Origin: Candidatus Hydrogenedentota bacterium
GTDB taxonomy: Bacteria; UBA8481; J006
Assembly: GCA_003697085.1 (NCBI GenBank)
Contig: RFFU01000074.1
Location: forward strand, 17,562 to 81,561
Direction of reading: 5' to 3'
Length of the DNA stretch: 64,000 bases
A program made the translations under genes and the position numbers. The notes under the pieces are model-generated. The model saw nothing but the letters and a program-made list of their open reading frames with translations. It searched no databases and was not told the DNA's origin. How positions within the stretch are numbered: the first letter of the stretch is position 1; every line of letters begins with the position of its first letter. Shown in pieces: positions 413-58,155 of the stretch.

Positions 413-567
413 TCCTGGGAGCGAAGGCGTCTTGCCCGCAGGAAACGGCGCGCGAATTCTCCAACCCGGGAGCGCGGGCATCTTGCCCGCAAGAAACGGA
501 GCGCAGATTCTCCAACCTGGGAGCGCGGGTATCTTGCCAGCAAGACACGCGGCGCAGATTATCAACC
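413..567. repeat. three tandem ~52-bp copies of intergenic repeat module C (CTGGGAGCGCGGGCATCTTGCCCGCAAGAAACGG.GCGCAGATTCTCCAACC)
   Basis: Read directly. Copies begin near 413, 466 and 518. Each contains a GCGGGCA-TCT-TGCCCGC type palindrome. Related copies sit in at least 10 other intergenic sites of this window. Confidence 0.85.
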
Positions 568-708
568 CGCGGAGAGCAATTCTCTCCATTCACGGCCGAA
601 CGTGTCTGTGGTCGGATGGGACGCGGACATTCTGCTTGTAGGAACGCGAGCAGATGAGATTTTCCCCCGACAAGAGAATTCACCTTTCTTTAGGGAAAAG
701 GAAGGTGA

Positions 709-1527
709 TTATTGGTCAGAGTCCGATCCGGAAGAGGACACTTTTGCGGCGAGGCATCCAGTGAGAAGAAGCAGCGGCCACGCCAATGGTGAGGCGTAGA
801 GACGTTCGGGAGGCCAGAGCAGAGGCGAAACATCCTGTCGGGCAATGAAAAAGAGCGGCGAGGATTTCATCAGAAAGATCCACGCGCTGTGAAGGCCGAC
901 GGAGCGTCCGAGGCGGCCGGTGGCGACGAGGGGAAGCGCCAAGGCGATTCCCGTGCAGAAGAGGCCGAAGGCTTCGGGAGGAATCTGTTGGCCGGGGCGG
1001 ATACGAAGAAAGTGAATCGCGCTGAAGAAAAGGCTCCCGAGAAGAATGCCGGCGGTGCTTCCACCAGAACGAACGAGGATTCCCGTGAGATACCCTCGCA
1101 TGAAGAACTCCTCGGAGAAGGCTATGATCAGGGCGGCGAGAAGATTTTCGAGAAGGCGGAAGGCGAGATCTCCGAGGGTGCGATTGAAACCGAAAAAGGC
1201 CGCGCCGAAAAGGATTCGAAGACCAAGGAAGAAAAGAAAAGGCACCAGACCGAGACGGAATCCGCGGAGGATATCTCCGGTGAGCGCGGAGGAGGGAGCG
1301 AGGCCGACCCGGTTCCAGCCCTCGGGAAAGGTGAAAGTGTAATGAAGGGCGGCCCCGAGAGCCGAGAGAGCCGCGAGGCGGGTAAAGATGCGTTCCGGAG
1401 TGAACGTAGGAAAAAGGGGATGAAGAAGCAACGCGAGAAAAACTGACCCGACCAGAGCGGCGGCGACGCCGGCGAGAAGATGGTGCAATTCGCGACGCCG
1501 CATCCTTGTATTGGCGTTTGAATTCAT
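709..1527 (-). CDS. CPBP family intramembrane glutamic endopeptidase (CAAX protease/Abi family)
   Basis: ORF 709-1584 (-). It has EEFFMRGY (EExxxR) and FFSAIHF (FxxxH) motifs within a multi-helix hydrophobic protein. Start moved to ATG 1527-1525, which is preceded by GGAGG (complement of 1533-1537). Confidence 0.8.
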   Translation of the reverse strand: MNSNANTRMRRRELHHLLAGVAAALVGSVFLALLLHPLFPTFTPERIFTRLAALSALGAALHYTFTFPEGWNRVGLAPSSALTGDILRGFRLGLVPFLFFLGLRILFGAAFFGFNRTLGDLAFRLLENLLAALIIAFSEEFFMRGYLTGILVRSGGSTAGILLGSLFFSAIHFLRIRPGQQIPPEAFGLFCTGIALALPLVATGRLGRSVGLHSAWIFLMKSSPLFFIARQDVSPLLWPPERLYASPLAWPLLLLTGCLAAKVSSSGSDSDQ

Positions 1528-1612
1528 CCCACCTCCCGGTTGTCGGAAAGGAAGGATTCTATCTTTTGCCCGCGTTCCAAACAAGAAAGAGGCATCCTCC
1601 CTCCTCCCCCCT

Positions 1613-1635
1613 CCCTCTCCCCCGTGGGGAGAGGG
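1613..1635 (-). terminator. perfect 10-bp GC hairpin (CCCTCTCCCC-cgt-GGGGAGAGGG) 25 nt downstream of the EF-hand gene stop; possible terminator or RNA stabiliser
   Basis: Inverted repeat read directly. No clean U-tract follows on the minus strand, so terminator function is uncertain. Confidence 0.3.
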
Positions 1636-1659
1636 TTGGGGTGAGGGGAATCTCCTCCG

Positions 1660-2718
1660 TCAATGGTTCCTCTTCCATTTTTTCGCGGCTTTCTTCGCCG
1701 CCTTCGGGTGATGATACGCCGTCTTCGCCGCCTTCGGATGGCTCGTTACAGCCTTCCGATGCTTGTAGGCCTCCTTGGCGGCCTTCGGATGACTTGCGAT
1801 CGCCTTCCGATGTTTGTAAGCCTTCTTCGCCGCCTCCGGATGATTCTTGACAAAGGTCCTATGAGCGTAAATCGCCTTCGCGACCGCGGGATGGGAATTC
1901 AGATACTTCTTGTTCTTCCATAACGCCTCCGCGACCTCGGGATGATCGTACAGGTACTTGCGGTTCTTATATACCTCCTTCGCCACCTCCGGGTGGGCAT
2001 CGAGCCATTTGCGGTTCTCGTAGAGTTTCTTCGCGATCTCCGGGTGCTCGTTGAGAAAAACTCGGTTCTTGTAAACCTCCTTGGCGACTTCCGGGTGTTC
2101 GTTCAACCACGTCCGATTCTCGTAGAGCCGTTTGGCCACCTCCGGATGTTCGTTCAACCATTCCCGGTTCTCGTAGAGTTTCTTTGCCACCTCCGGGTGC
2201 TCGTTCAGCCATTTCTTGTTCCGGGCGAGGGCCTTCGCCACCTTCGGATGTCGATCCAGATAATACTTGTTCTCGAGGAGTTTCTTCGCCACGGTGGGGT
2301 GGTTCTTCAGCCACTTCAGATCGTCGAGATTCGCGTTGGGATACTTCGCCTTGAGATCGCGCCAGGCGCGTGCTTCAAGCGCTTCCCGGTGTCGGATCTC
2401 CCAGCGCCGCTGCGCCTTCGCTTCCTCAAATGAGATTCGTCCATCGCCGTCCTTGTCGGCGTGCTGGAAGCGCTCCCCGTCACGATAGGATTCAAATTCC
2501 AGCATCGCTGCGTCGATCTCATCCTTGTCCAGAAATCCATCTCCGTTTAGGTCTGTCTCGTCAAACCGTTCCTTCGAGTAATACTCCTTGTAAACCTCGC
2601 CCTCGTCGTCCGCTCTCACTGGAAGCACGGAACCAAGGGTACAGCCGATCGCCGATGCCAGAATCACCGCCGCCAGCCTTCGCACCGCTTTGCTCTTTCC
2701 TCGCTTCTCCCTTGCCAT
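1660..2718 (-). CDS. secreted (possibly lipoprotein) EF-hand calcium-binding protein with C-terminal 17-aa tandem repeat array
   Basis: N-terminal signal-like segment RRLAAVILASAIGC. Two canonical EF-hand loops are present: DLNGDGFLDKDE (aa 56-67) and DKDGDGRISFEE (aa 88-99). About 12 repeats of the type WLNEHPEVAKKLYENRx follow and degenerate into HPKAAKEAYKHRKA units. Confidence 0.85.
   Translation of the reverse strand: MAREKRGKSKAVRRLAAVILASAIGCTLGSVLPVRADDEGEVYKEYYSKERFDETDLNGDGFLDKDEIDAAMLEFESYRDGERFQHADKDGDGRISFEEAKAQRRWEIRHREALEARAWRDLKAKYPNANLDDLKWLKNHPTVAKKLLENKYYLDRHPKVAKALARNKKWLNEHPEVAKKLYENREWLNEHPEVAKRLYENRTWLNEHPEVAKEVYKNRVFLNEHPEIAKKLYENRKWLDAHPEVAKEVYKNRKYLYDHPEVAEALWKNKKYLNSHPAVAKAIYAHRTFVKNHPEAAKKAYKHRKAIASHPKAAKEAYKHRKAVTSHPKAAKTAYHHPKAAKKAAKKWKRNH
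1663..2313 (-). repeat. intragenic 51-bp (17-codon) tandem repeat array, about 12 units
   Basis: Periodicity is visible in both the protein (HP-x-VAK-x-LY-x-NR-x-WLNE) and the DNA (recurring GCCACCTCCGGGTGCTCGTTCAGCCA-like blocks on the plus strand). Confidence 0.8.
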
Positions 2719-2908
2719 TCTTCTCCCTCCATCTTTCGATATTCTTGAGGCTCTTTTCGTCCTCTGTTCCTTTAGAAGCTCTGAGGCGAAAACCGTTTAC
2801 CTGAAATAACGGTAACTTTTCTTACATAGGGAGCATACAACATGTTCCCAAAAGGATTTACCACGAAAAGAAGAGAGGGGAGAAAAGAGAAGAGTGATCG
2901 ACCTTCGC

Positions 2909-3904
2909 TCAAGAAACACTTTCCGCGGCACGGACTCCTCCCTTCCGGGAAGCGATGAGAAAGGTGATCAGGTCCCCGAGGGCGCTGACAACGCGCAGAA
3001 GGACCGCCAGCGCCAAGGTGGTTCCCTGTCCCAGGGTTTTTTCATAAAGAAGAAGGAAGACCGTCTCGCGGATTCCCAATCCGGCCGGCGCTCCCGGAAC
3101 CAGGAAACCGGCCAACCACGCCGCCGCGAACCCCCAAGAAAAGTCATACCATCTCAGGGGGACGTGGGAACCGGACAAAAGGGCCAACAACAGCGAAGAG
3201 ATGATGCCGTAAAGCCCGAAAACGATCCAATAGAGAAGGAAAGCAGAAATCAATCGAAGGGGAGAGCAAAAAGCCCGTCGCGCTAGAAACCATCCGCGAA
3301 CCCTCGGCAGGAGAGCGGCGAAAACGGCCGCGCCAACGCCCCCGGCCAGGAAGAGCGGAAGGCCGAATTCCTTGAAGGAAGAAAGAAAGGGAAGGAGTCT
3401 GCCCGCGCTGAAGTAACCGGAAAGGATTCCCGCAAGAATCAGCGAACCTCCGCTGAGAACGATGATGAATGTCTGCATTCCGATCGCCAGAACGGAAACC
3501 TCCCCTGGAATCCGCTTCTTAATCGCGAGGGCCACCTGGCCGATATGCTGAAAGATGTTGCCGGGGATGTACTTGGCAATCTGACTGATTCCGACGATTT
3601 CGTAACATCGTCCAAAAGTGATTGGCGGGGCGCCGGCGGAATAGAAGAGTGTCGAGACGGTCACGGTCAACGCAACGCATGACGTGGCGAGAAGGACCGC
3701 GAGGGAGAAGAAGAGGAGATTGGTTGCGGTGAGGCGGATGGAGGGAATTTGATGGAACAAAGTCGCGAAGCGTGTCAGGAAAAAGAGAAGGGAGAGTCCG
3801 AATAGGACTCGGCCGACAATGTCGATCGCTCTTCCCGCGTTCGTCCTCATTTTGTCGGTAGTTTGATCGGTGGAACGAGCGTTGTCAAAGGAAGGGGGAG
3901 TCAT
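2909..3904 (-). CDS. polytopic membrane protein, flippase-like / lysyl-PG-synthase TM-domain-like (UPF0104-type)
   Basis: ORF 2909-3949 (-) has about 8 hydrophobic helices and an AKYIPGNIFQHIGQ segment resembling the KYLPG motif of UPF0104 proteins. Start moved to ATG 3904, which forms an ATGA overlap with the upstream methyltransferase stop. Confidence 0.5.
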   Translation of the reverse strand: MTPPSFDNARSTDQTTDKMRTNAGRAIDIVGRVLFGLSLLFFLTRFATLFHQIPSIRLTATNLLFFSLAVLLATSCVALTVTVSTLFYSAGAPPITFGRCYEIVGISQIAKYIPGNIFQHIGQVALAIKKRIPGEVSVLAIGMQTFIIVLSGGSLILAGILSGYFSAGRLLPFLSSFKEFGLPLFLAGGVGAAVFAALLPRVRGWFLARRAFCSPLRLISAFLLYWIVFGLYGIISSLLLALLSGSHVPLRWYDFSWGFAAAWLAGFLVPGAPAGLGIRETVFLLLYEKTLGQGTTLALAVLLRVVSALGDLITFLIASRKGGVRAAESVS

Positions 3905-4659
3905 GTCTTCTTCTTGATCAGGAGCCAGATGTAAGTGGGGAAGAGGCAATACAGCCGCCGCACTGCGAAAGCGGCCATCTTTTGCTTGAAGGAACCGGGG
4001 AGTAGCATATCCGTGGCGGCGAACGTTTCCGGCTCCTCAACGATCCTCGGAGTGTAATCGACGACGTCGAAGGCCTTCACAAGTTTTCTCAACCCCCAAC
4101 AGGTGTAAAGGCGTTCGTGGTATTCATTCCCGCGTCCGGTGAGCCGTACATAGGCGTTCGCGAGGGGCCGCGGTAATATCGAGAGAAAGGGAAGTCTATT
4201 GTCCGGCTCGATGAGAATCAGCCTGTTTCCCGCTCCGAAATAACAGACTCCACCCGGTTTAAGGACCCGTTCTATTTCCTTCATCAAGTCCTCGGCGTTC
4301 TCGACATGTTCATAGACGTGGTTACAGACAATGACATCGAAACTCTCGTTCGGAAAATCGGTATGAATTGCATCGCCGATTTGAAAGGAAAGGTTCGGCC
4401 CTTCGAATGTCCGCCGGGCAAACTCCACGGCGGCCTCATCGAGATCGATTCCCGTTGCCGAGCGGAAATGTCGAGCACAGGCGGAAGTCGCGAACCCGGC
4501 CGAGCATCCCATTTCCAGGAGATCAAGATTTCGAGTGTTCGGGAGAAAATCCAGGAGCACGGAGACAATCTTTTTCGCCTTCCAGAGCCGCTGCCGTTCG
4601 TCAAACTGCTCCTGATGAGAGTGGGAATATCCCGTGCGATCATCGGAATCAGGGATCAT
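3901..4659 (-). CDS. class I SAM-dependent methyltransferase
   Basis: Motif I LLEMGCSAGF, then DLDEAAVEFAR, FDVIVCNHVYEHV and LKPGGVCYF (Methyltransf_11-like). Start moved to ATG 4659, an ATGA overlap with the GT4 stop. Confidence 0.85.
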   Translation of the reverse strand: MIPDSDDRTGYSHSHQEQFDERQRLWKAKKIVSVLLDFLPNTRNLDLLEMGCSAGFATSACARHFRSATGIDLDEAAVEFARRTFEGPNLSFQIGDAIHTDFPNESFDVIVCNHVYEHVENAEDLMKEIERVLKPGGVCYFGAGNRLILIEPDNRLPFLSILPRPLANAYVRLTGRGNEYHERLYTCWGLRKLVKAFDVVDYTPRIVEEPETFAATDMLLPGSFKQKMAAFAVRRLYCLFPTYIWLLIKKKT

Positions 4660-5930
4660 TCGGAGAAACCATCCGCTGTTTCCGCGGAAAGAAATGCGAG
4701 ATATTTCCCGACGATCTTTTCCCAACTGTAATGGTTCCGGACGAAAAGGGTGGCGCGGCGTTGTTGTTCGATAGCGTGGTCGGTGTCGAACGAGAGTATC
4801 TCGTTGATTTTTCCGGCCAGTGCCTCGACATCGGCCGGCGGGAAGTAGTAGGCCCCTTCTCCCTCCTGGACGGCCCCGATGTTTCCTCCGACCTCACTGA
4901 CCAACGCGATCGTTCCACAGGCCATTGCTTCAAGGGCGATCGTGGCGGATCCTTCCGTGTCTCCTCGGCTGTCGATGCAGGAGGGGAGAACAAAAAGGTC
5001 GGCGCTTCGCATCCAATCGACGATTTCTTCCTCGGGAATGGGACCGGGCATGATGACGTCGTTTTCGAGACATAATCTTCTCTTCAGAGCCTCCAGTTCA
5101 TTTTGCAAAGGGCCGTCGCCACCGAGAAGGAGACACGCATCGGGATGTTCTTTTTTTACCGCCGGCATCGCCTCCAAAAGGTATCGGTGCCCTTTCCTCT
5201 CAACCATTCTTCCCGTGAAGAAGAGAACTTTCCTGCCGAAGATTTTATATCTTTCGAGAAGGGTGAGGTTGGGAGGTCCTGGAGAATAATAAGCCGTATC
5301 GATGCCATCCGGGATGATCTTGGGGCGGATGCCCGGCGCCACTCGTTCGAGGGCGTCGGCCGTGTTTTTGCTGATGGCAACGAGAAGATCGGCGCCCCGA
5401 GCGCTCATGCGAACGAAAGGTTTGAGAAAAGTCCAGCGGCCGGAATCGAGCGGAAAAATCTCGGCTCCATACGCCGTGATGATCAGCGTGCGACCCGTCA
5501 TTCGTTTGATGAGATAACCGATGAATCCGGGAGGAAACGCCCAGTGGGCATTGATATAACGGATTCTGTTTTCTTGAACGATTCGATAGGCGGTCCAGAA
5601 GAGTCTGAAAAAATAGAACGGAACCTGAAGGAGGCACCACGGGTGACGAATGTTTTCGGGGATTCCGGCGCCCGAGGTGAGTGTCTCCCAGCCGGATACG
5701 AAATAATGAAATCGGTGGATGTTCACACCGTCGACTTTGGCGAAGAGTGCCGTACCGGGTTCGGCGTGAGTCACGACATGAACGGCAAATCCGGCGGAAA
5801 CGAAACTCTTCGCCGCGTGATGGACGAACTTCCCCTTCGGAAGTCTCTTTGAATCGCGGACAAAGGAAGGATAGGAGGTTGTCAGAATACAGAGGGAGCG
5901 TTGGGAGTGCCCGGCGTGGAGAGTCGTCAC
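4656..5930 (-). CDS. glycosyltransferase family 4 (GT-B, Glycos_transf_1)
   Basis: C-terminal half reads FFTGRMVERKGHRYLLEAM...LLLGGDGP...ADLFVLPS...EGSATIALEAMACGTIALVSEVGG, the typical GT4 E-x7-E region. Confidence 0.9.
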   Translation of the reverse strand: MTTLHAGHSQRSLCILTTSYPSFVRDSKRLPKGKFVHHAAKSFVSAGFAVHVVTHAEPGTALFAKVDGVNIHRFHYFVSGWETLTSGAGIPENIRHPWCLLQVPFYFFRLFWTAYRIVQENRIRYINAHWAFPPGFIGYLIKRMTGRTLIITAYGAEIFPLDSGRWTFLKPFVRMSARGADLLVAISKNTADALERVAPGIRPKIIPDGIDTAYYSPGPPNLTLLERYKIFGRKVLFFTGRMVERKGHRYLLEAMPAVKKEHPDACLLLGGDGPLQNELEALKRRLCLENDVIMPGPIPEEEIVDWMRSADLFVLPSCIDSRGDTEGSATIALEAMACGTIALVSEVGGNIGAVQEGEGAYYFPPADVEALAGKINEILSFDTDHAIEQQRRATLFVRNHYSWEKIVGKYLAFLSAETADGFSE

Positions 5931-6130
5931 GAGAATTCCACGAAATGAATGGAAACCGAATCAATGGATCGACGGGATTTTCCCAACACGGATTTCCTTC
6001 TCATCCTCCCGGCGATGAGGGTAGCAAGCCGCCAGGGGGCGGGCAACCGATAAAGCGCCGGAAGGAATGCGGCGTAAAGTCGGTCCCTTGTGTCAATCCT
6101 GTTCTTCATTCCATCGAGTCCCCGTCTCAT
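5927..6130 (-). CDS. small hypothetical protein (uncertain)
   Basis: Its TGA overlaps the GTG start of the GT4 gene (GTGA at 5927-5930), suggesting coupling. The longer ORF-track version (to 6247) runs into repeat module A, so only the distal ~60-67 codons are plausible. No recognisable motif. Confidence 0.25.
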   Translation of the reverse strand: MRRGLDGMKNRIDTRDRLYAAFLPALYRLPAPWRLATLIAGRMRRKSVLGKSRRSIDSVSIHFVEFS

Positions 6131-6177
6131 CTTCGCGGAGCCCTTCGTGGAGGAGGCCGGCCGGGTTCTCTCCCCCG

Positions 6178-6335
6178 GTGTCATTCCGAGCGAGGCGGAG
6201 CGAAGCAACGCCGACGAGGAATCCCCCATGAGTGCCATCCAGCGCATAGCGCGGGGTTCTTACCTGCGGAAATTCGCTTCATAGAGCGGCCAACCCTGGG
6301 AACGCAGGCATCCTGCCTGCATGGAAGGGATGGAA
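6178..6335. repeat. intergenic repeats: module A (GTCATTCCGAG...CGAGGAATCCCCC, 6178-6228) plus a partial module C (6293-6335)
   Basis: Direct sequence match to copies at 11300-11350 (inverted), 29747-29778 and 39955-39986. Confidence 0.7.
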
Positions 6336-6487
6336 CGTAGACTTTTCAGTCCACGCGAGTGAAACGCGGACTCTCCCGTCCGGGGAACGACGCGGCAAAG
6401 TTCGGCACAAATGCCCCCTCTTTGCCTCGCAACCGCGGAACCGCGGGGTTTGTTGCGAAAAGAACACCTCCCTCTTATACTTGATTT

Positions 6488-7474
6488 ATGTATCAAAAAC
6501 AGCGGATCGCGCTGGTTATTCCGGCTCACAACGAAGAGAAACTCATCGGAGATACGTTGCGGGGGGTTCCGGAACTTGTGGACGATATCTACGTAATTGA
6601 CGACGGTTCCACGGACGCGACCTCGGAATGCGCAAGGAAAGTCGGAGACCGCCGGGTCGTGGTCATTCGGAAGGAGAAGAACGAGGGAGTGGGAGCTGCG
6701 ATCGTTACGGGCTACAAGGTTGCCTTTGAGAGAGGCGCCGATATCGCCGTCGTGGTTGGTGGCGATAACCAGATGGACCTGGCGGAGATCGAGAATTTTC
6801 TTCGACCGATCATCGAGGGAGCGGCGGATTACACGAAAGGCAATCGGTTTCTCGATCCCTCCGGGACTTTCGAAAGAATGCCGACCGTCCGGCTCTTCGG
6901 AAATGCCTTGATTTCGGCGATGTGTAAATTGGCTTCCGGTTATTTCAAAGTTTATGATGCGGTGGACGGTTACACGGCGCTGTCGAGATATGGATTCGAG
7001 CAAGTTCGATGGAAGAAGGTCTGGAAGGGATATGGATATCCTTTGGACTTTCTCATTCGTCTCAATACTGCAGGACTTCGGGTAATGGATGTGCCGCGAC
7101 GCGCAATTTACCTTTCCGGGGTCCGACAATCCCAGATTCACGGTTTCTCGTATGCAATTCACGTGTTCCCGATGCTTCTGCGGGGTTTCTTTCGGCGACT
7201 GCTTTACAAATATATTCTTCGAGATTTCCATCCGCTCGTCTTCTTTTATTTGCTGGGGCTCTTCCTGGTTCCGGCGGGATTCGTTTTTGGCCTCTACCTC
7301 GTTTGGCAGCAGGCAAGCGGGATCGGCGTCTCCGGCCCCCGTGCCGTTTTGTGCGCCTTGGCGATCTTGATAGGAGTGCAATCCTTCTTCTTCGCCATCG
7401 CTTTCGAAATCCTGCATCAAGAATCCCCCGGAAACCGACGCCAAGAAGGTCGTTCGAAGCGACAATCGTTATGA
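6488..7474 (+). CDS. glycosyltransferase family 2 with C-terminal transmembrane helices (Dpm1/GtrB-like)
   Basis: ALVIPAHNEEKLIG...VIDDGSTDAT...VVVGGDNQMD (DxD-like) followed by hydrophobic C-terminal helices. Confidence 0.9.
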   Translation: MYQKQRIALVIPAHNEEKLIGDTLRGVPELVDDIYVIDDGSTDATSECARKVGDRRVVVIRKEKNEGVGAAIVTGYKVAFERGADIAVVVGGDNQMDLAEIENFLRPIIEGAADYTKGNRFLDPSGTFERMPTVRLFGNALISAMCKLASGYFKVYDAVDGYTALSRYGFEQVRWKKVWKGYGYPLDFLIRLNTAGLRVMDVPRRAIYLSGVRQSQIHGFSYAIHVFPMLLRGFFRRLLYKYILRDFHPLVFFYLLGLFLVPAGFVFGLYLVWQQASGIGVSGPRAVLCALAILIGVQSFFFAIAFEILHQESPGNRRQEGRSKRQSL

Positions 7475-7573
7475 GAAAACGTTTTGAGAAAATCTTTCGT
7501 AAAAAAAATCACCGACTTCACCCCTTGCGAATCTTTTTCGATCCGGCTTTATTTTTCGATAGAGAGAAGAAAC

Positions 7574-7758: not shown

Positions 7759-7790
7759 CTCGAGTGCTCTTCTTAAATGAGGGCGGAAAT

Positions 7791-29406: not shown

Positions 29407-29408
29407 CG

Positions 29409-50164: not shown

Positions 50165-50217
50165 GGATGGATAGAGGACGCCATTCCGTTTTCCGTTGTT
50201 TGCAATAGTGTGCTTGG

Positions 50218-51156
50218 TTATCCGCGCAAAATCGACTCCAATTGCACACTGAATCCGATGGCGGGAACGTCGGGACCGAAACGGCCGACAACATTATCGT
50301 AGCGGCCGCCGACGAGCACGGGGCGCCCGTGTCCCCGGGCCACTCCTTCAAAGACGATCCCCGTGTAATACGGCGTTACCGGCACCATCGCCGGGTCCAC
50401 GATCACTTCGATCCCTTCCCCCCGCAAAAATTCCGCCACGCCGAACAACCTCTCCACGGCGTCTCGAAATTCCGCATCGGAAGCAAGCGATTCCACCGCG
50501 GACCGCGACGGAGAAAAACCGAACTCAAGGAGTCGCACCAGTCGTTCGCCTCCTTCGAAAGCCCCGAGTGCCGTGCGATCCCGCCGCCGAATACTTTGGA
50601 GTATCGTCTCTCGTTCCGTCTCATCTCCGGCGGAAAGAAGCGCCGGGACAAGCGTGGAGTCTCCCAGGGCGATCCGAACATCCTTCAATCCCAGATCCCG
50701 CAAAGACTCGACCGCCAAACGCACCGTGGCGCGATCTTCTTCGGAAACATCGCCCCCATAAACCTCGTACCCGACCTGGCGGAATTCCCGGGTCCGGCCC
50801 GTATTCCGCAAGACTTGCCGAAAGACTTCGCCGGCATAAAAGACACGCACGGGAAGGTCTCGATCCGTCATTGCAGCGGCGAAAATCCGCGCCGCCGGAA
50901 TCGTCAATTCGGGCCGCAGGGCCAGCGTCTTTCCGTCCGTGTCGGAAAAAAGAAAGAGATCGTCCCAACCGGCATTGGCTTCCTCGAAGACGGAAGCGTA
51001 CTCGAGACACGGAAGCGAAATTTCTTCGGCTCCCCACGCGAGAAACCTCCGCCGCAAAATCTGCTCGCTCTCCCGCAAACGCCGGCAATCTTCGCCGAGC
51101 CACACCGACGTTCCCCAAGGGTACGGCGGAACAGCCCGTTCCTTCTTTTTCTTCAT
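50218..51156 (-). CDS. hisZ: ATP phosphoribosyltransferase regulatory subunit (HisRS-like, no anticodon-binding domain)
   Basis: Class II aaRS-like core: LALRPELTIPAARIF, VFYAGEVFR, REFRQVGYEVYG, GGRYDNVVGRFG. At 312 aa it is too short for HisS. Confidence 0.75.
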   Translation of the reverse strand: MKKKKERAVPPYPWGTSVWLGEDCRRLRESEQILRRRFLAWGAEEISLPCLEYASVFEEANAGWDDLFLFSDTDGKTLALRPELTIPAARIFAAAMTDRDLPVRVFYAGEVFRQVLRNTGRTREFRQVGYEVYGGDVSEEDRATVRLAVESLRDLGLKDVRIALGDSTLVPALLSAGDETERETILQSIRRRDRTALGAFEGGERLVRLLEFGFSPSRSAVESLASDAEFRDAVERLFGVAEFLRGEGIEVIVDPAMVPVTPYYTGIVFEGVARGHGRPVLVGGRYDNVVGRFGPDVPAIGFSVQLESILRG

Positions 51157-51302
51157 CTCTTCACACTCCCTCTTTCCTTCCCTCCGTTTCCTCTCGAAAA
51201 CGTTCTCTCCTCGTTACCCATTCCGCTCCGGATAATCTTCCTCGCACCTTTCCTCGAGACGACACGCCATCGATCGCCCGAGGAAACGGGTCGAGGGACG
51301 AT

Positions 51303-52238
51303 TCAGACGAGCCGATTCCGAAACGTTCCCGAACGGGCGTATTCGACGATAATCGCGGCCGCCTCGGTCGAAACGCTTGCTTGTGCTTCATCCGTGGAGG
51401 CTCCGATGTGAGGCGTTGCGATCACCTTCGGATGACTCGCGATCGAATTCTCTCCCGGCGGTTCCGTTTCATACACATCGAAAGCCGCTCCGGCGACCCG
51501 ACCGTCGTCGAGCGCTTCCCGCAGGGCCTGTTCATCCACGACTCCTCCCCGCGCGCAGTTGATGATCCTCACACCCTTCTTCACCTTCTTCAATGTCTCC
51601 GTGCCGACCATATGCCGAGTCTCTTCCGTCAGGGGAACGTGGAGAGAAAGGTAATCCGCCTCCCGAAAAACCCGATCCAGATCGCATCGTTCGATTCCGG
51701 CGATATCTTCCGTCACGAGCGGATCGTAACCGATGACGGTCATACCGAAAGCACGGGCATATTCCGCAACCGTACGGCCGATCCTTCCAAGGCCGATCAG
51801 GCCCAAGGTCTTGTCCTTCAACTGCGTTCCCTGAAGCGACTTCTTCTCCCAGCGGCCGGCCTTCATCGTGCGGTCCGCCTCGGGAAGACGCCGAGCCAGT
51901 CCCAGCATCATTCCTAAAACCAGTTCCGCCACGGCGCTCGTGGACCCGCCTGGCGTGTTCATTACCGCGATGCCTCGCTCCTTCGCCGCCGTCAAGTCGA
52001 CGTTATCCACCCCGACCCCCGCGCGAACGATCGCTTTCAACGAGACCGCCTTCTCGAGAATCGAAGCCGGAAGTTTCGTCGCTGATCGGATGATGATCGC
52101 TTCGTACCCCCCGATCCGTTCCGACAGCTCCTCCGGACTCAAGCCGACCGCGACATCGAGTTCCACCTCTTCCGCCGCCCGCAAAATCTCCAATCCCGCT
52201 TCCGACAACTTGTCCGATACCAAAACCTTCACCGCCAT
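51303..52238 (-). CDS. D-3-phosphoglycerate dehydrogenase-like 2-hydroxyacid dehydrogenase (short form, no ACT domain)
   Basis: KVLVSDKLSEAGLEIL N-terminus, NAD motif GLIGLGRIGRTVA, and the catalytic-region pattern RGGVVDEQAL...FDVYETEP...ATPHIGAST. Confidence 0.85.
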   Translation of the reverse strand: MAVKVLVSDKLSEAGLEILRAAEEVELDVAVGLSPEELSERIGGYEAIIIRSATKLPASILEKAVSLKAIVRAGVGVDNVDLTAAKERGIAVMNTPGGSTSAVAELVLGMMLGLARRLPEADRTMKAGRWEKKSLQGTQLKDKTLGLIGLGRIGRTVAEYARAFGMTVIGYDPLVTEDIAGIERCDLDRVFREADYLSLHVPLTEETRHMVGTETLKKVKKGVRIINCARGGVVDEQALREALDDGRVAGAAFDVYETEPPGENSIASHPKVIATPHIGASTDEAQASVSTEAAAIIVEYARSGTFRNRLV

Positions 52239-52354
52239 CGATCCGCCTCCTTAATCTTCTGTTCCTTTCAGGAGGAGCGACGATCGGCGTTTTCGCGAAT
52301 CGAAGGTCTCCGCCTCGCGAAGCCCCCCGCTCCTCCGTCCGCAATGCCCGTTTC

Positions 52355-52903
52355 TCACTCCCCCTTCAACACCCGGTATATCCTCCGGCGCAATTCTTCC
52401 ACCCCATAACCGGTCCGCGCGGAAATCGCGATCACTTCCGTTCCGGCCGGGGATTGAGCCTCTCTTCGCCGCATTATTCCCGGAATGGCGGAACGCGCAA
52501 CCTTGTCCGCTTTCGTCAAAAGGAGCAGGTTCTCTCCCTCCCCCTTGGCGAACCACCCTAAAAATTCGCGTTCCTCCTCCCTCAACTCCCGCCGAATATC
52601 ACAGCAGAGAACGAAGAGGGCGACATATCCGGAGGCGAGAAGTTCCCGAATCAGCGGTTCGAAGTTCCGTGAACGCACCTTCGCCGTGGCGGCGTAGCCG
52701 TACCCCGGAAGATCAACGAAATAACCGCCTTGGGAAAGAGAAAAGAAGTTCGCCGCCGCGGTGCAACCGGGCGTCTTCGAGACACGGGCTAATTTTCGGT
52801 TTCCGCACAGAAGATTGAGGACCGTGGACTTTCCGGCGTTGCTCCTCCCGCCGAACAGGACCCATCGCGCATCGTCCCGCGGGAAATCCCTCGCCGACAC
52901 CAC
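52355..52903 (-). CDS. engB: ribosome biogenesis GTP-binding protein YsxC/EngB
   Basis: GRSNAGKSTVLN (G1), DLPGYGYA (G3), TKADK (G4). Directly downstream of lon. Confidence 0.88.
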   Translation of the reverse strand: MVSARDFPRDDARWVLFGGRSNAGKSTVLNLLCGNRKLARVSKTPGCTAAANFFSLSQGGYFVDLPGYGYAATAKVRSRNFEPLIRELLASGYVALFVLCCDIRRELREEEREFLGWFAKGEGENLLLLTKADKVARSAIPGIMRRREAQSPAGTEVIAISARTGYGVEELRRRIYRVLKGE

Positions 52904-52938
52904 GCTTTTGTGGAAAGCGGCTTCAAACCGGATCGGAA

Positions 52939-55386
52939 CTACCTCTTCTTCTTCCGAGCCCTTCCCGACGGCGCCTTCCGCGCCAACGCCAAATCCAAAA
53001 CCTCGTCCATCGACTCGACGGGATGGAATTGGATCTTTTTCTTGATGGATTCGGGAATGTCCTCGAGGTCACGTTCGTTCTCTTTCGGAAAGATGACATG
53101 ATCGATTCCCGCGCGGGCGGCGGCCATAAGTTTCTCCTTCAATCCCCCGATCGGAAGAACCTTTCCTCGCAACGTGATCTCGCCTGTCATCGCCAAATCG
53201 CAACGAACGACGCGATTCGAAACGAGCGAAAGCAGCGCGGTGGCGATCGTGATTCCCGCCGAAGGCCCATCCTTCGGTATGGCCCCTTCGGGAACATGCA
53301 CGTGGACGTCGGTCTTCTTGAAGAAATCCCGCGGACATCCGAACTCCTTCGCGCGCGAGCGGGTGTATCCGTAGGCGGCTTGAGCCGATTCCTGCATCAC
53401 CTCTCCCAGTTTCCCCGTCAGGGTCAGTTTTCCCGTCCCAGGCATCTTCAGGGCCTCCACGGCCAGCAACTCGCCTCCCGTCTCCGTCCAAGCCAATCCC
53501 ATCACGACACCGACCTCGGGTTTCTTTTCCGCGGTTCCCGGCCGGTATTTCGGCACGCCGAGATAGGTTTTGAGGTCTTCCGGAGCGATGCGGCGCGGAG
53601 CGGGCCTTTTCTTCTCCGGTCTCCCGGGGCTTCCCGCTTTCTTCTTTCTCTTCCCCCTTCCCGTTCCTTCTCCCTGCTCGACGATCTCACGTGCCACCTT
53701 CCGGCATGTGCGTGCGATCGAGCGCTCCAAGTTTCTAACTCCGGCTTCGCGCGTGTACTCCCGGATGATTCGATACAGCGTTTCGTCTGGAAACGTGATC
53801 CGAAACTTCTTCAGCCCGTGCTCCTCCAGTTGTTTCGGAACAAGAAAACGTTTCCCGATCTCGACCTTCTCGTCATCGGTGTACCCGGAAAGATTGATCA
53901 CCTCCATCCGATCCAGAAGCGGACGAGGAATCGGATAGAGAACGTTGGCCGTGGTGATGAAGATGACCTGCGAGAGATTGTAGTCGACGTCGAGGTAGTG
54001 ATCGGCGAAGGTCGCGTTCTGCTCGGGATCGAGAACTTCGAGGAGAGCTGCGGAGGGATCGCCCCGAAAATCCATCGCCATCTTGTCCACTTCGTCGAGA
54101 AGAAAGAGCGGATTGATCGAACCGGCGCGGCGCATTCCCTGAATGATCCTTCCGGGCAACGCCCCCACGTACGTACGGCGATGCCCGCGGATTTCCGCCT
54201 CGTCCCGCACACCCCCCAGACTCATTCTGACGAACTTCCGCCCGATCGCCCGCGCGATGCTCCGCCCCAAACTCGTCTTTCCCACCCCGGGCGGTCCGAC
54301 GAAACAGAGGATCGGTCCGCGATGCGTGCGCGAAAGTTTCCGTACAGAGAGATACTCGAGGATTCGTTCCTTTGCCTTCTCCAACCCGTAATGGTCCTCA
54401 TCGAGGATCCTCGCGGCCTTGCGGATATCGAGCCGGTCCCGCGTCGAGGTCTTCCATGGAAGTTCCACGAGCCAATCGAGATACGTGCGGCAGACGGAAG
54501 CCTCGGCCGACATCGGGCTCATTCGCTCCAGTCTCCGCAACTCGCGCTCCGCCTTCACCCGAACCTCGTCCGGCATCCCCGCCGCGGCGATCTTCTGCTT
54601 CAGTTCCTCCATCTCGGTGAAGTCCTCGTCCTTCTTCCCGAGCTCCTTCTGGATCGCCTTCATCTGTTCGTTGAGATAATACTCCCTTTGCGTCTGCTCC
54701 ATCTGACTTCGCACTTCGCTGCGGATCTTCTTTTCGATCTTGAGAATCTCGATCTCGGCCGTCAGTTTCTCCATGATCAACTCGATACGCCGCTTCAAGT
54801 CGCGCGTCTCGAGTATCTCCTGCTTGTCCTTGACCTTCAGAACCATCTGCGCCGCGATCGCGTCCGCTACGCGCGCGGGATCCTCCTGGTTCGTGATCGC
54901 CATCACCGTCTCCGGAGGAACACGCTTGTTCAATTTCACGTATTGTTCGAAAAGCCCCACGCAACTGCGCAACAGTGCGGCGAATTCAACCGTCCCTTCC
55001 ACAATGTCCGGATACGGCGCCGTCAAAACCTCGAAGTATGCATCATTCGGAAGATAATCCCGGATCGCTCTCCGCTCGACCCCTTCCACCAGAACCTTGA
55101 TCGTTCCATCGGGCAGTTTGAGCAGTTGGAGGATCTCAGAGACGGTTCCGATCCGGAAGATGTCGTCTTGAACCGGATCGTCGGTCGTGGGGTCTCGTTG
55201 AGCGGCAAGAAAGATGAGACGCGGTCCCTTCATCGCCGCGTTCAAGGCTTCGACCGAGCGCTCGCGTCCCACGAAAAGCGGAATGACCATATGCGGGAAA
55301 ACGACGAGATCGCGCAAGGGCAACAGCGGCAGCGCCTCCGGAATCCGGGTGACCGAAGCCGCACGCTTGATCGGTCCCGCCGTCAC
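52939..55386 (-). CDS. lon: ATP-dependent Lon protease (LonA)
   Basis: LON N-domain ([24 protein letters not shown]), Walker [10 protein letters not shown], and protease site [10 protein letters not shown]. Confidence 0.95.
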
Positions 55387-55574
55387 GGACTCTCTCCGAA
55401 GAACCGCACCGGCCGCCTCCTGCGCCCGCGTCCTCGTTTTTTAACTCGTTTCGAACTCGTTTTCGTCATTCGTGGGACGGAGTCTAGCCGGGAATCCTTC
55501 CCGGTGGCAAGAAGATTGCGAACGTTTCCGAAGCGGGCATGAGAAATTTTCGGTGAGGAACGTCCCTACGAGCG

Positions 55575-55985
55575 CGGGTTCTATATGCCGGGAACGCCGG
55601 CATCCCTGCCGGCAGAAATGGGGCGCAGGTTCTCCAACCTGCGGAAGCCAAATCGTGCACCCGTAGGGGATTCCTCGTCGGACTGCGCCTGCCTGCCGGC
55701 AGGCAGGCCCGCCTCGGAATGACACTACGTGCGGATCGCCGGTCGCCGCTACGATTGTCGGTCGTGCCAGGAGGGCGACCGGCCGGTCGCCCCTGTGGGA
55801 AGGATGCCCGCGCTCCCAGGTTCCCCTCCTCCCCTTTTTCCTTCTCCCTTTTGCCTTTTTCCTTTTGCCTTCTTCCCGTTCCGTTTTTCGTGATTTCCGT
55901 GTCCGTGGTTTTACTTCCTTCCGCGTCTTCCGTGGTTCTCATTTTTTCCGTGTCCTTCCGCGTGCTCCGTGGTCCTCAGTTTGTG
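55575..55985. repeat. intergenic repeat island (C, A-inverted, partial C-inverted, degenerate B-inverted, module D)
   Basis: C at 55590-55650. A inverted at 55663-55715. Pyrimidine-rich stretch at 55821-55885. TTCCGTG/TTCCGCG-rich module D at 55886-55985, which recurs at 58060-58155. Confidence 0.7.
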
Positions 55986-56377
55986 ACGACGAGTTTGAAG
56001 ATCTGCCGGCTCCGAGCGGGACCGCAGGAAGCATGACAGGTGAAGGCGTAGGTCCCCGGGACAGTCGCCGGGATCTCGATCGGCCCCGCCTCAGGTCCCT
56101 TCTCCTCCCCCTCCTTCCGTGCCGGAATCACAAGGTCGATCCCCAAGGCGCGATTCGTCAAGGTGTGTTCCACGTCGAGCGATCGCGCACGCAGCCGAAG
56201 AATCGTTCCCTTTCGCACCGTTATGCGCGCCGGCTCGTATCCCCACTGCCATGCCGTAAGATTCACTTCGCGTACCGCCGGCAGCGGCTCCATCAGATTC
56301 TCCCGGCAACCCCACGCCAACAACGCCACGCCGAAAAGCGCGATCACGGCTCTCCGAGAAGGTCGAATTCCGCTCAT
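55976..56377 (-). CDS. small cupredoxin-like lipoprotein with incomplete copper site
   Basis: [24 protein letters not shown] (signal/lipobox-like), then a beta-rich domain ending [12 protein letters not shown]. This resembles the C-terminal ligand loop of cupredoxins but lacks the following His/Met. The ATG overlaps the thrC stop (ATGA at 56374-56377). Confidence 0.5.
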
Positions 56378-57744
56378 GAGGCCATTCGGTCCCGGTGCAT
56401 CCGAATTGCCTCGAGAACCGCTTCCGCTCTCGCCGGTAATTCCACCGGCTTGTTGACGTAATGCCCGACGACCCCTTCGAGCGCATCCGTGTGATATCGA
56501 ATCTTGAACTCTGGAAACTTCAAACCGTTGGCCGTGGAAATCACGACAACCTTTTCGTCCTTCCGAATAATTCCCTTTTCCAGACACTTGATCAACGAGG
56601 CCAATGCGACACCGGTGTGGGGACAATTGAAGAGTCCCGTCCGATCCGCGCGGGCGACGGCATCCGAGAGTTCCTGTTCCGTCGCCTGCTCGACGATCCC
56701 GTTGAACCGTTTCAATGTTCGTATCGCCCGCCGAATCGATACCGGATTCCCGATCTGAATCGCCGAAGCCAATGTCTTTTCCGCTTTCTTCGGACGAAAC
56801 TCCGCAAACCCGGTGAGAAAGGATTCGTAGAGCGGATTGGCGCGCGCGGCCTGCGCGCAAACGATCCGCGGCAATCGGTTGATCACGCCCAACTCCTTCA
56901 TCATCCAGAAACCGCTTCCGAGGGCGGAGACGTTACCGAGGTTTCCGCCGGGAATCACGACCCAGTCCGGAACCTCCCAATCACACTGCTGAACGATCTC
57001 GAACGCGACCGTCTTCTGTCCCTCGATCCGCAACGAATTCATCGAGTTGGCGAGATAGATTGATTTGTCCTTTGTGATCTCCTTGACGATGGCCATGCAC
57101 CCGTCGAAGTCGGTATCGAGAGAAAGAACGAGAGCGCCGTTGGCGATCGGCTGGATCAGTTGGGCCGGCGAGATCTTCGCTCGAGGAAGCAGAACCACCG
57201 CTGGGATGCCCGCGGCCGCGCAGTATGCGGCCAGCGCCGCCGAGGTATCACCGGTCGAGGCACACGCGACGGCGTCGATTGCGATTCCCTGAGCAATCAT
57301 CTCGTTCACCATCGAAACCAACACCGTCATGCCGAGATCCTTGAAGGAGCCAGTGTGCGAATTGCCGCACTGCTTGATCCAAAGATCCTCGACCCCGATC
57401 TCGGCTCCAAATCGCTCCGCCCAAAAGAGATTCGTTCCGCCTTCATACATCGAGATGACATTCTCATTACTCACTTCCGGGCAGACCCATTCCTTTTTTC
57501 CCCAAACCCCTGATCCGTAAGGCCAATTCGTGCGCATATAACGCTCGTCGAAGAGCCGGCGCCAGTAATTCGGAGATTGCTGCTTCAATCGTTCGATATC
57601 GTGTTCGACCTCGAGTAACCCTCCGCACTTCGGACAGTGATAAACGATCTCGGTAAGATCCAAGCGAACATCGCAACCTTCTCCACATCGAAACCAGGCC
57701 CGATAAGGAGTCTGCTGTCGGTGATTTTCACGGTTGCCAGCCAT
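56374..57744 (-). CDS. thrC: threonine synthase with N-terminal zinc-ribbon
   Basis: PLP-lysine motif HTGSFKDLG and typical fold-type II PLP blocks. N-terminal Cys pairs CGEGC...CPKCGG. Confidence 0.92.
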
Positions 57745-58019
57745 ACGCTGATCCTATCCGGGAACTTTCCTCTGCGGCAAGCACGGAATCCGATTTTCTT
57801 GGTGACCGGATTGCGCGGATGCGTTCGCTCCGCGTGGCAGTCGGCAACGAGGCGCGGATTCTCAACCCACGGAGGCGAAAAAAGCGCTGGAGAGGCGGAC
57901 GTACCGTTGCGCCCTCCAATGGCCGCCTTCTTTTTTATCCCGGTTCCGATGCCGGCCCCTCGATCAGCCGATGGGGAATAGAGAGACGGGATTCGTGTTG
58001 GATAGCCAAGAGCGTTCGC

Positions 58020-58155
58020 GCCCTTCTTCCTTTGTTTCCTTTGCCCTGTCTCCTTCCTCCTATTTCCGTGCATTCGGTGTATTCCGGGGTTCTCCTTTTC
58101 CGTTTTCCGTCTCTTCCGCGGTTCCTTTCCGCTCCGTGTGTTCCGGTGTTTCGGG
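58020..58155. repeat. degenerate B-inverted + module D copy
   Basis: CCCTTCTTCCTTTGTTTCCTTTGCCC... followed by TTTCCGTCTCTTCCGCGGTTCC...GCTCCGTGTG, parallel to 55821-55985. Confidence 0.55.

Follow-up and report, generated by a model that had tools for sequence, protein, structure and literature searches.

The 64-kb stretch of DNA analysed here (the window; contig RFFU01000074.1) belongs to a metagenome-assembled genome (MAG) of the candidate phylum Hydrogenedentota, and its intergenic regions carry a set of short repeat modules, which are the subject of this study. According to a gene map that was built from codon statistics and a Pfam search with 50 predicted proteins, the window is ordinary chromosomal DNA with housekeeping genes. 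Encoded on it are glycosyltransferases, a CHASE2 cyclase, a PLD-type enzyme, a C39/ABC exporter, an OmpA-like protein, a PduO-type adenosyltransferase, a MoxR-DUF58-BatA/B/D operon and a VapBC pair, as well as GlgP, TadA, Der, PlsY, GpsA, Lon, a PALP enzyme, MnmA, AroC and an M16 peptidase, and it contains three tRNA genes. Several of the repeat arrays adjoin cell-envelope, glycosyltransferase and tRNA genes. The explanation which we regard as probable is that two co-resident families of the repetitive extragenic palindrome (REP) class have been stitched, together with accessory modules, into mosaics that resemble the bacterial interspersed mosaic elements (BIMEs) and, more closely, the intergenic mosaic elements of Neisseria (NIMEs).

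A whole-window repeat search combined with self-BLAST yielded repeat-rich blocks at positions 412-572, 6168-6329, 11163-11493, 14316-14640, 28372-28530, 29689-30037, 39840-40347, 41587-41628 and 55572-55725. Non-coding DNA makes up 14% of the window and contains every good module copy, namely nine of module C1, six of C2, four of E, four of a palindrome termed pal, three of B and about 13 of A. As all good copies lie outside the mapped genes, the statement of an earlier, sequence-only reading of this DNA that the modules never interrupt a gene holds. Its further statement that they occupy almost every gap longer than 150 bp was too strong: modules are present in 10 of the 18 gaps above this length, and in all eight gaps longer than 400 bp. 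Altogether they cover about 2.4 kb of the 8.5 kb of gap DNA, and five of the ten module-bearing gaps are divergent promoter regions.

The chance expectation for the modules was taken from dinucleotide-preserving shuffles. The A pattern GTCATTCCGAG-N5-35-CGAGGAATCC has eight exact matches (0.00 expected), C1 has eight matches with at most three mismatches (0.00 expected) and C2/E have nine (0.02 expected). The copies of A which the sequence-only reading had listed at 6178, 11300, 11376, 11456, 14316, 14628, 29641-29778, 29945, 39955, 40203, 40293 and 55663 are all present, those at 11376 and 40203 as variants. The same is true for B at 14542 (inverted), 29794 and 40002 and for E at 11136, 11232, 11525 and 30055 (inverted).

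The features of the window are given below by position and strand. A stands for a TGTC-tagged hairpin, C1, C2 and E for head-plus-hairpin units, Cp for a C1 copy with pal in its loop, and B, D and F for accessory modules.

413-574 (+): tandem array of 3.1 copies of a 51-nt unit, C1 then C2 (GGGAGCGCGGGCATCTTGCCCGC-AAGAAACG-GAGCGCAGATTCTCCAACCTG), found with Tandem Repeats Finder (TRF)
618-640 (+): degenerate head-plus-hairpin GGGACGCGGACATTCTGCTTGTA, weakly paired and doubtful
6178-6228 (+): A, TGTC-tagged, with a 24-nt inner hairpin
6295-6385 (+): C1 (6299-6320), then two degenerate E-type hairpins (6332, 6361)
11134-11257 (mixed): E (11136-11158, +), C2-C1 (11178-11228, -), E (11233-11255, +)
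11297-11493: three A copies at 11303-11347 (-), 11376-11416 (+; stem variant TGTCATCCCGAG..GACGGATCTCCCC) and 11457-11493 (-)
11523-11549 (+): E copy
14314-14670 (-): composite 3, 353 bp, with A ends at 14316-14358 (+) and 14628-14670 (-)
Cargo of composite 3, all inverted: F 14384-14493, Cp 14491-14537, B 14540-14625
28373-28531 (+): Cp (28373-28417), then F (28420-28531), upstream of a tRNA-Met gene
29591-29727 (+): about 4.5 tandem 24-nt 5'-half A sites TGTCATTCCGAGGCGCGTCTTTTC, with a complete A at the end (29689-29727)
29746-29986 (+): composite 1, 237 bp, with A(+), linker, B, C1, C2, linker, A(-)
30003-30086 (-): degenerate pal and A half-site (30003-30037); E (30062-30084, -)
39879-39934 (+): C1-C2 pair, starting 44 nt past the stop codon of gene 38924-39835
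39954-40336 (+): composite 2, 379 bp, with A(+), B, C1 variant, C1-C2, A variant (40203-40258), A(-)
40722-40748 (+): solitary C1
41587-41628 (-): solitary Cp; the Logan contig L001 starts inside it
55566-55726 (mixed): degenerate C2 (55569), C1 with the two-sided stem change GCCGGCA/TGCCGGC (55591), C2 (55620-55642)
55664-55726 (-): A with pal nested in its loop, within the preceding block
55794-55975 (-): degenerate C1 (55794-55822), pyrimidine-rich B-like tract and TTCCGYG-rich D tract, reaching the stop codon of gene 55976-56347
57846-58160 (mixed): C2-like hairpin (57849-57872) and a second B/D-like tract (58021-58160)

Two tRNA-Met (CAT) genes, at 28598-28672 (+) and 29408-29482 (-), flank the gene of the PduO-type cob(I)alamin adenosyltransferase (28738-29406), and the largest repeat arrays lie directly outside this trio.

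Structure of the modules and their composites

Module A has the layout TGTC-ATTCC-GAG-(inner segment)-CGA-GGAAT-CCCC, in which the inner segment measures 6-35 nt and is usually itself a hairpin. The TGTC, which starts all eight full copies of the window, and the CC(CC) tail are unpaired. The stem opens with an A-T and a T-A pair and comprises five Watson-Crick pairs, followed by a tandem G.A/A.G step (..CGAG/CGAG..) and, in the short form, by a G-C and a C-G pair, which makes nine stacked positions. All window copies are intergenic, and pairs with outward-facing tags occur at 29746/29986, 39954/40336, 14314/14670 and 11376/11493. In other genomes the commonest form is the 26-mer GTCATTCCGAG-CGNAG(T)-CGAGGAATCC, the flanks of which are not conserved. 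Its centre, GCGNAG, overlaps GCGNAGC, a motif published (in a review) as an extraordinarily stable DNA mini-hairpin, although many copies have a T in place of the closing C; d(TGTCATTCCGAGCGAAGCGAGGAATCC) is a DNA sequence that contains the G.A step. The stability of this centre may matter for A. The z-scores of about 0 to -1 that were obtained when several short copies were folded come from nearest-neighbour parameters, which credit neither tandem G.A pairs nor mini-hairpins.

A search of other genomes with a pattern that is blind to the sequence of the stem (N5-GAG-N4-8-CGA-N5) returned 172 copies with perfectly complementary 5-nt stems, of which 42 have a stem other than ATTCC. These 42 copies comprise 18 kinds of stem, about ten of which recur or fit the AT-initial pattern (among the variants are ATCCC, ATCCT, ATGTC, ATGTT and ATTCT). 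They nevertheless retain the upstream TGTC (T in 25, G in 36, T in 32 and C in 33 of the 42), the first A-T pair, the GAG/CGA step and the downstream C, which stands at position +1 of the tail in 35 of the 42. A stem that covaries while the unpaired tag remains fixed is the signature of hairpin recognition and not of binding to a double-stranded inverted repeat.

What the sequence-only reading had called module C is real, but consists of two hairpins, C1 (cctg-GGAGC-GCAGGCA-tct-TGCCTGC-aagaa) and C2 (aatg-GGGC-GCAGGTT-ctcc-AACCTGC-gggg), and its module E (GGAGC-GCGGACT-ctcc-AGTCTGC) is a C2 in which two stem pairs are changed on both sides. The three form one head-plus-hairpin family, in which a (C)CTGG-GA-GC or GRGCGC head precedes a GC-rich stem of 7 bp with a loop of TCT or CTCC, followed by a short tail (AAG or GGG). 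C1 and C2 together form the 51-nt unit of which TRF finds 3.1 tandem copies at 417-574 (84% matches), in agreement with the threefold tandem noticed from the letters. Among the 14 copies of C2/E, 86.6% of the stem cells pair, compared to 21-38% when the 3' partners are slid, and five of the eight pairs are changed on both sides. The covariation score of these stems is 0.341 (shuffles 0.218 +/- 0.035), a value that none of 500 shuffles reached, and G.U-compatible pairs occur in the head strand. The C1 stems of 157 metagenome copies read GCGGGCA/TGCCCGC in 86 cases, GCAGGCA/TGCCTGC in 60 and a mixture in six. The check for covariation that had been proposed for the hairpins thus gave compensatory stem changes in C2/E, C1 and A alike. 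Upstream of the stem, 152 metagenome copies and the window share the consensus (C)CT|GG-GA-GC, so that the tag is CTGG or CCGG.

C1 and C2 are arranged head-to-tail in the window, while the C1 doublets of other genomes are 17 of the +/- type (head-out inverted), 12 in tandem and none of the -/+ type. About 7% of the C1 copies in other organisms (L149-L268) carry another second hairpin, AATGAGCGC-G-NAG-CGCGAA, at the offset of C2, so that a GRGCGC-headed layout of two hairpins, C1+X, recurs in which the second one is interchangeable.

The 20-nt palindrome pal (CCTGCCTGCCGGCAGGCAGG) is never free-standing in the window. It is nested in the loop of three C1 copies, the Cp copies at 14491-14537, 28373-28417 and 41587-41628, and in the loop of the A copy at 55664-55726. 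A MAG of the Flavobacteriales (L030) has, at about 3264-3309, an A copy whose loop contains a pal-like palindrome (CCTGCCTG-N-CAGGCAGG), as at 55664-55726 of the window, and a second pal-like copy directly downstream of it.

Of the accessory modules, B is a tract rich in purines that has many GGG runs and shows internal periodicities of 6 and 24 nt. F is a 112-nt unit present in two copies, both of which adjoin Cp. As had been noticed before, one F copy (28420-28531) is about 75% identical to the reverse complement of the other (14384-14493), with a local alignment score of 94 compared to 15 +/- 2 for shuffled sequences. The two F sequences, which have no Rfam match, also allow a common consensus fold with paired ends and two compensatory pairs, a result that is based on two sequences only. 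D, finally, is a TTCCGYG-rich tract of which the two copies resemble each other and are marginally similar to B. The degenerate B/D copies proposed at 55821-55975 and 58021-58160 are indeed alike (score 50 compared to 21 +/- 3.5), but their similarity to the good B copies is marginal.

The modules are assembled in three composites of 237, 379 and 353 bp (composites 1, 2 and 3), each of them bounded by inverted A copies. All three have in common a left A, an 18-nt linker, B, the head of C1, a right linker and an inverted A, and they differ in their interior, which holds C1-C2 in composite 1, a C1 variant with C1-C2 and an A variant in composite 2, and Cp-F in composite 3. The similarity between them ends exactly at TGTC...GACA, and no target-site duplication flanks any of the three. 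The recurrent A-B-C order pointed out by the sequence-only reading is borne out by the units 29746-29885 and 39954-40093, which are 88% identical, and an inverted copy at 14550-14640 shares 88-90% identity. Folded as a single strand, composite 1 gives one long hairpin in which the A ends pair (z = -2.97; none of 200 shuffles was as stable). Composites have thus been copied as whole units, and short units have been duplicated in tandem (51 nt threefold, 24 nt 4.5-fold).

Relatives, a second assembly and distribution

The Lon proteins of the nearest other relatives are 69-71% identical to that of the window. In two of these relatives (L147 and L148) the synteny around the lon gene is kept, no module occurs in 22 kb each, and the spacer between the cupredoxin gene and the lon gene measures 76 bp and 231 bp, compared to 589 bp in the window. 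It follows that the lineage of the window gained or amplified the modules, which account for its long spacers.

Two short-read contigs of the Logan assembly of run SRR7905022 match the window: L001 covers positions 41594-55639, and L146 covers positions 1-9928 and extends 6.9 kb further leftward. L001 starts inside a Cp (41594) and ends inside a C2 (55639). Between the Logan contigs and the MAG there are ten single-base differences, two of which lie in modules (6202 in A and 6311 in the loop of C1), and the blocks 413-574 and 6168-6390 are reproduced with single-base differences only. With about 30 head-plus-hairpin copies and about 13 A copies per 64 kb, the genome would contain more than 1000 copies if the window is representative; the adjoining 6.9 kb have none.

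Outside of this organism, A occurs in at least 120 stretches of species-representative genomes from at least 12 phyla. The matches listed include Acidobacteriota, Chloroflexota, Verrucomicrobiota, Bacteroidota (with Hymenobacter isolates), Gemmatimonadota, Binatota and Nitrospirota, as well as several proteobacterial classes, Firmicutes, Actinobacteriota (Coriobacteriales), Armatimonadota, Patescibacteria and Chlorobi-like lineages. A further 24 matches are viral contigs of IMG/VR, while the PLSDB plasmids gave only chance-level matches to the short form of A. In the other genomes A stands in 34 convergent, 57 tandem and 10 divergent gene contexts and hence mostly downstream of genes, and in the tandem contexts its orientation is weakly biased (35 same, 22 opposite). 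A Dehalococcoidia chromosome (L027, OZ244885.1, a closed MAG chromosome) carries seven A copies of alternating orientation within about 900 bp (6247-7141), on a tandem unit of about 329 bp.

The 23-mer of C1 was found at no fewer than 120 metagenome loci with unconserved flanks. In contrast to this exact 23-mer of C1, that of C2 had no match in the JGI metagenomes, and no near-match to C2 was present in the C1-bearing loci, so that C2 and E appear specific to the lineage of the window. When 1.1 Mb of unrelated genomes were scanned for perfect 7-bp hairpins, the 5-mers most frequent in front of them were GTAGG (26 times), GTAGC (14), TAGGG (13) and GGAGC (12), with a mean of 1.4 over 5-mers. 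This excess indicates that tagged hairpins of the REP type are common in those phyla. Verrucomicrobial copies (tctggGGAGC-GCACGCT-tct-AGCGTGC) share the layout of C1. Searching the literature with the sequence strings of A, C2 and sister variants gave unrelated primer matches only.

Two kinds of partner gene were considered for these hairpins and rejected. A GIY-YIG gene or another gene linked to A was sought among the open reading frames (ORFs) within 600 bp of 179 A copies at 144 loci, where only repeat-derived pseudo-peptides and large generic families recur. A gene for a REP-associated tyrosine transposase (RAYT) was absent within 1 kb of 161 C1 copies at 120 metagenome loci (654 kb of C1-bearing contigs).

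Affiliation, mobilisation and alternative explanations

Bacterial REPs have been sorted into two super-families, GTAG-tagged and CGTC-tagged (Di Nocera, De Gregorio & Rocco 2013, PMC3733652). The tag of CGTC REPs is often TGTC and also CCTC, A-T residues occupy stem positions one and two, the stem has 8-9 bp, the loop has 4-5 nt and is longer in some families, and a short unpaired tail with the consensus CCA follows. Head-to-head dimers predominate, no transposase is associated with these repeats, and the neisserial repeat dRS3 constitutes the family CGTC-1 (PMC3733652). Module A fits this super-family, from which it departs in stem and loop. It shares the unpaired TGTC tag, the A-T and T-A pairs at the start of the stem (ATTCC/GGAAT compared to ATTCCC..GGGAAT in dRS3) and a short C-rich tail. 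Like the CGTC REPs it occurs mostly as head-to-head inverted dimers, lies outside of genes and together with other REP families, and lacks a transposase next to it. One further difference is that the dimer partners in the window are 160-340 bp apart and enclose other modules. The Hydrogenedentota and most of the phyla that harbour A are moreover outside the five phyla from which such repeats had been reported in 2013 (PMC3733652).

For C1, C2 and E the closest relatives are the GTAG-1 REPs. In the GTAG super-family the tag is GTAG or one of the variants GYAG, GYRG, GTRG, GTMG and GTGG, and the GTAG-1/2 families have an unpaired dinucleotide, a 6-9-bp stem with compensatory sub-families, a 2-4-nt loop and a conserved 3-nt tail (PMC3733652). 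The Pseudomonas GTAG-1 layout TGTGG-GA-GCGGGC..GCCCGC-GAA illustrates this, and the Pseudomonas putida REP, TGTGGGAGCGGGCgTGCCCGCGAA (Nunvar 2010, PMC2817692), has the GGGAGCG head that is also seen in C1. The C modules agree with GTAG-1 REPs in having a tag, an unpaired GA, a stem of about 7 bp rich in GC, a 2-4-nt loop and a 3-nt tail. Compensatory stem sub-families, tandem amplification and, outside of the window, head-out C1 doublets are likewise found with GTAG-1 REPs and the REP doublets forming hairpins known as REPINs (PMC2817692; PMC3116915). As the tag of C1, C2 and E starts with C and not with G, strict GTAG membership fails, and the family is filed as having a GTAG-1-like architecture. 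A further difference is that the exact 23-mer of C1 stands on very many unrelated metagenome contigs, while classical REPs are usually restricted to a species or genus.

The closest architectural match to the composites is provided by the NIMEs, arrays in which RS repeats of 50-150 bp, from more than 100 families, lie between dRS3 inverted repeats (ATTCCC-N8-GGGAAT; Bentley et al. 2007, PMC1797815). In both cases hairpins of the same super-family bracket repeat modules of variable order in intergenic arrays, and both kinds of array are dynamic and cause annotation noise. Unlike in NIMEs, the cargo in the window (B, C1/C2, F) consists of hairpin REPs or purine tracts that are unrelated to the RS families, no Correia elements, insertion sequences (ISs) or prophages are inserted in the arrays, and a link to natural transformation or antigen genes is not evident. 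The trait that defines mosaics of the NIME and BIME type, palindromic units interleaved with recurring modules in variable order within intergenic DNA, is found in the window.

The BIMEs of E. coli, composed of REP Y/Z and extra-REP motifs, are similar in that palindromic units and linker motifs are combined, extragenic and amplified in tandem. Their REPs alternate strictly in orientation and belong to one super-family (GTAG-3), whereas in the window two super-families are combined with the non-palindromic modules B, D and F. Mosaic combinations of modules, and tiny palindromic units nested in other repeats and in hairpin loops, have reportedly been described also for the small dispersed repeats of Nostocaceae (Elhai et al. 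2008) and the mosaic small non-coding repeats of Deinococcus radiodurans (Makarova et al. 1999), in both cases with other sequences and in other host phyla. What is new here is a tagged-REP mosaic in a candidate phylum, the Hydrogenedentota, with the lineage-specific sub-families C2, E, F and B; the class itself, a kind of selfish or structural DNA, is known.

If the modules are REPs of this kind, they would be non-autonomous units that probably spread as single-stranded DNA hairpins, recognised via their unpaired tag and their stem. REPtrons contain a cognate gene for a RAYT, an HUH/Y1 transposase, which is typically flanked by REPs, and REPs reach copy numbers of more than 100 per genome (PMC2817692; PMC3116915). 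By analogy, the GGAGC-headed family is likely mobilised by a trans-acting HUH/Y1 transposase of the RAYT type that would be encoded elsewhere in the genome. For the TGTC-tagged family, no dedicated transposase has been reported in the literature (PMC3733652). The mosaics may grow by the copying of composites, by tandem duplication of short units and by the nesting of palindromes in hairpin loops, steps which the arrangement of the window shows in part. In any transcript or single strand that crosses the modules, stable hairpins would form, and these could serve as substrates for recombination or site-specific insertion.

Several observations weigh against this explanation. Neither the 64-kb window, where the Pfam search confirmed the earlier impression that no transposase is present, nor the 6.9 kb to its left encodes a transposase, RAYT/Y1 enzymes included, and the ORFs within 0.6-1 kb of 179 A and 161 C1 copies in other genomes do not contain any recurrent protein family. 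With no enzyme near the modules, the mobilisation step is pure inference. Insertion or deletion polymorphism was not seen between the two available assemblies of the organism. With regard to structure, the C family is tagged CTGG or CCGG, whereas the published variants of GTAG all keep the first G, and C1 and C2 lie head-to-tail in the window instead of forming the inverted doublets of REPINs and BIMEs. The stem of A has five Watson-Crick pairs and a conserved tandem G.A step in place of the 8-9 bp of CGTC REPs, and most of its loops in the window span 6-35 nt with a secondary hairpin, compared to 4-5 nt. Finally, the location of half of the module-bearing gaps in divergent promoter regions, albeit in a small sample, differs from the usual REP bias.

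The wide occurrence of A leads to a broader idea, namely that A, and perhaps C1, belong to a pan-bacterial class of single-stranded-DNA hairpin elements. The 26-nt core of A is nearly identical across at least 12 phyla and viral contigs, and only three stem positions covary. We consider this idea unlikely, but if it is true it implies a factor for mobilisation or binding that is either universal or has been transferred very widely, and which might be a replication or repair protein of the host rather than a transposase encoded by the element. Genomes as dense in repeats as the present one could help to identify such a factor by phylogenetic profiling.

A different view would be that the modules act mainly at the RNA level, for example as 3'-end stabilisers, attenuators or processing sites, and that they are kept by selection on expression, their spreading being secondary. 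REPs in general lie mostly downstream of genes, a pattern that was taken as a hint of an RNA function (Di Nocera et al. 2013, PMC3733652). The preference of A for positions downstream of genes across phyla (34 convergent and 57 tandem contexts compared to 10 divergent ones) is in line with this, as are the conservation of the hairpins via compensatory changes, the G.U-compatible pairs in the head strand and the C1-C2 pair that begins 44 nt after the stop codon of gene 38924-39835. Against it, Rfam recognised only the three tRNAs of the window at gathering score and no module, and at E-values up to 5 the sole overlap with modules was a chance-level long non-coding RNA model (E 4.3, 29825-30057), so the proposed Rfam check yielded no curated family. 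The suggestion that the modules are terminators was not borne out in the sense of canonical intrinsic terminators: they do not have a T-tail, and terminator-like sites are not enriched (17 compared to 15.2 expected). The fact that five of the ten gaps with modules are divergent promoter regions speaks against a primary role as terminators in this genome and against RNA elements more generally. The weak bias of A orientation in tandem contexts (35 versus 22) and the occurrence of both orientations within single composites also count against a function in RNA, and the absence of modules from the orthologous spacers of the relatives indicates that they are dispensable. A primary RNA function therefore appears improbable to us.

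The composites could alternatively be miniature inverted-repeat transposable elements (MITEs), that is, deletion derivatives of a DDE-type IS with A as terminal inverted repeats (5'-TGTCATTCC...GGAATGACA-3', TG...CA), on which a full-length IS acts in trans. The exact boundaries of the three composites (237, 353 and 379 bp) at inverted A copies, where the similarity ends with TGTC/GACA, and the long single-strand hairpin of composite 1 with its paired ends would suit such elements. The 24-nt tandem half-sites at 29591-29710 also resemble the multiple transposase-binding sites at some transposon ends. However, all three composites lack target-site duplications, and most A copies, both in the window and in other phyla, are solitary hairpins of 26-50 nt and not the ends of longer elements. 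At the 144 loci no outward-facing A pair encloses a transposase, and the one 1-kb pair that was examined (L019) encloses phage-like ORFs. The covariation of the A stems next to a fixed unpaired tag speaks against MITEs as well, and the literature has no transposase linked to CGTC repeats (PMC3733652). We thus judge a MITE origin to be distinctly improbable. Of the earlier label 'REP/MITE-like', the REP side stands, with tagged hairpins in BIME- and NIME-like mosaics, while the MITE side is not supported by target-site duplications or a parent IS. Likewise, the scenario under which all modules are fragments of a single IS or MITE finds no support, since there are several distinct families and no parent IS in the window and the sampled loci.

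It is also conceivable that the arrays act as platforms for recombination or protein binding. In the NIME arrays, which are paralleled here in architecture, dRS3 is the integration site of filamentous prophages via a phage-encoded transposase or recombinase (PMC1797815), A copies occur on viral contigs of IMG/VR, and several arrays adjoin cell-envelope/glycosyltransferase genes and tRNA genes. Yet genes for a recombinase or integrase are absent from the window, none of its A copies contains an inserted prophage or IS, and the assemblies are invariant at the array sites. This very doubtful reading would in any case explain a possible use and not the origin or spread of the modules, and it is compatible with their being REP-class mosaics. 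Next to no credence can be given to GC-rich low complexity or assembly error: although the B and D tracts are compositionally simple (purine/pyrimidine-rich, with 6-, 7- and 14-nt periodicities) and the degenerate B/D copies are only marginally similar to good B copies, the specific patterns are not expected in dinucleotide-preserving shuffles, blocks of 90-140 nt are 88-90% identical, the independent Logan assembly reproduces 413-574 and 6168-6390, and the same motifs occur in isolate genomes, e.g., Hymenobacter, which refutes this explanation for A, C1, C2, E, pal, F and the three good B copies.

For the genome, the consequences of the mosaics of tagged REPs are longer intergenic spacers, breaks of short-read assemblies at repeats and spurious ORF calls across them. 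The repeats explain the long intergenic regions and the contig ends of this Hydrogenedentota MAG, and also the recurrent junk 'proteins' VIPSEA..SLGMT, PGSAGILPA and GKGKGK produced by gene callers. That the modules are a source of false ORFs, as the sequence-only reading had supposed, is seen at the ORFs 29446-29982, 39895-40368, 10967-11617 and 14148-14714, which lie wholly on repeats, and the pseudo-peptides VIPSEA..SLGMT and PGSAGILPA cluster as 'proteins' across unrelated genomes. Masking of the repeats would clean the annotation of this and many other environmental genomes. The results further add a candidate phylum to the hosts of tagged REPs and a NIME-like mosaic outside Neisseria, and they show that TGTC-tagged and C1 hairpins reach far beyond the 5-8 phyla that were reported in 2013. 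The wide occurrence of near-identical A and C1 cores sharpens, but does not solve, the question of what mobilises CGTC-type REPs.

Further features of the window

Two other sets of repeats in the window are intragenic and separate from the intergenic modules. The gene 1660-2718 (-) contains, at 1723-2292, about 12 tandem coding repeats of 51 nt (17 residues) with 72-80% identity. Its Pfam matches are weak EF-hand matches only, and the product looks like a repeat protein that is unrelated to the modules. The second set is a 157-nt direct repeat (7562-7718 and 7779-7935, 77% identity) which covers the end of ORF 7471-7758 and the start of ORF 7829-8515. The N-termini of these two ORFs, neither of which has a Pfam match, may be paralogous.

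The repeat-free half of a 1-kb gap contains the strongest intrinsic-terminator-like site of the region (40570-40596), a 12-bp stem followed by a T-run, and about 110 nt upstream of it a sigma-70-like promoter match (40457-40486). The pair (40457-40596) could represent a small RNA or a small ORF. At 40664-40693, AGACATCAGAACGCA occurs twice as a perfect 15-nt tandem duplication. The VapBC-type toxin-antitoxin pair (40866-41488, -) is located between two repeat blocks. Pfam recognises a PIN domain in 40866-41321, and an ORF for an AbrB/SpoVT-like antitoxin (about 41318-41488) was read by eye.

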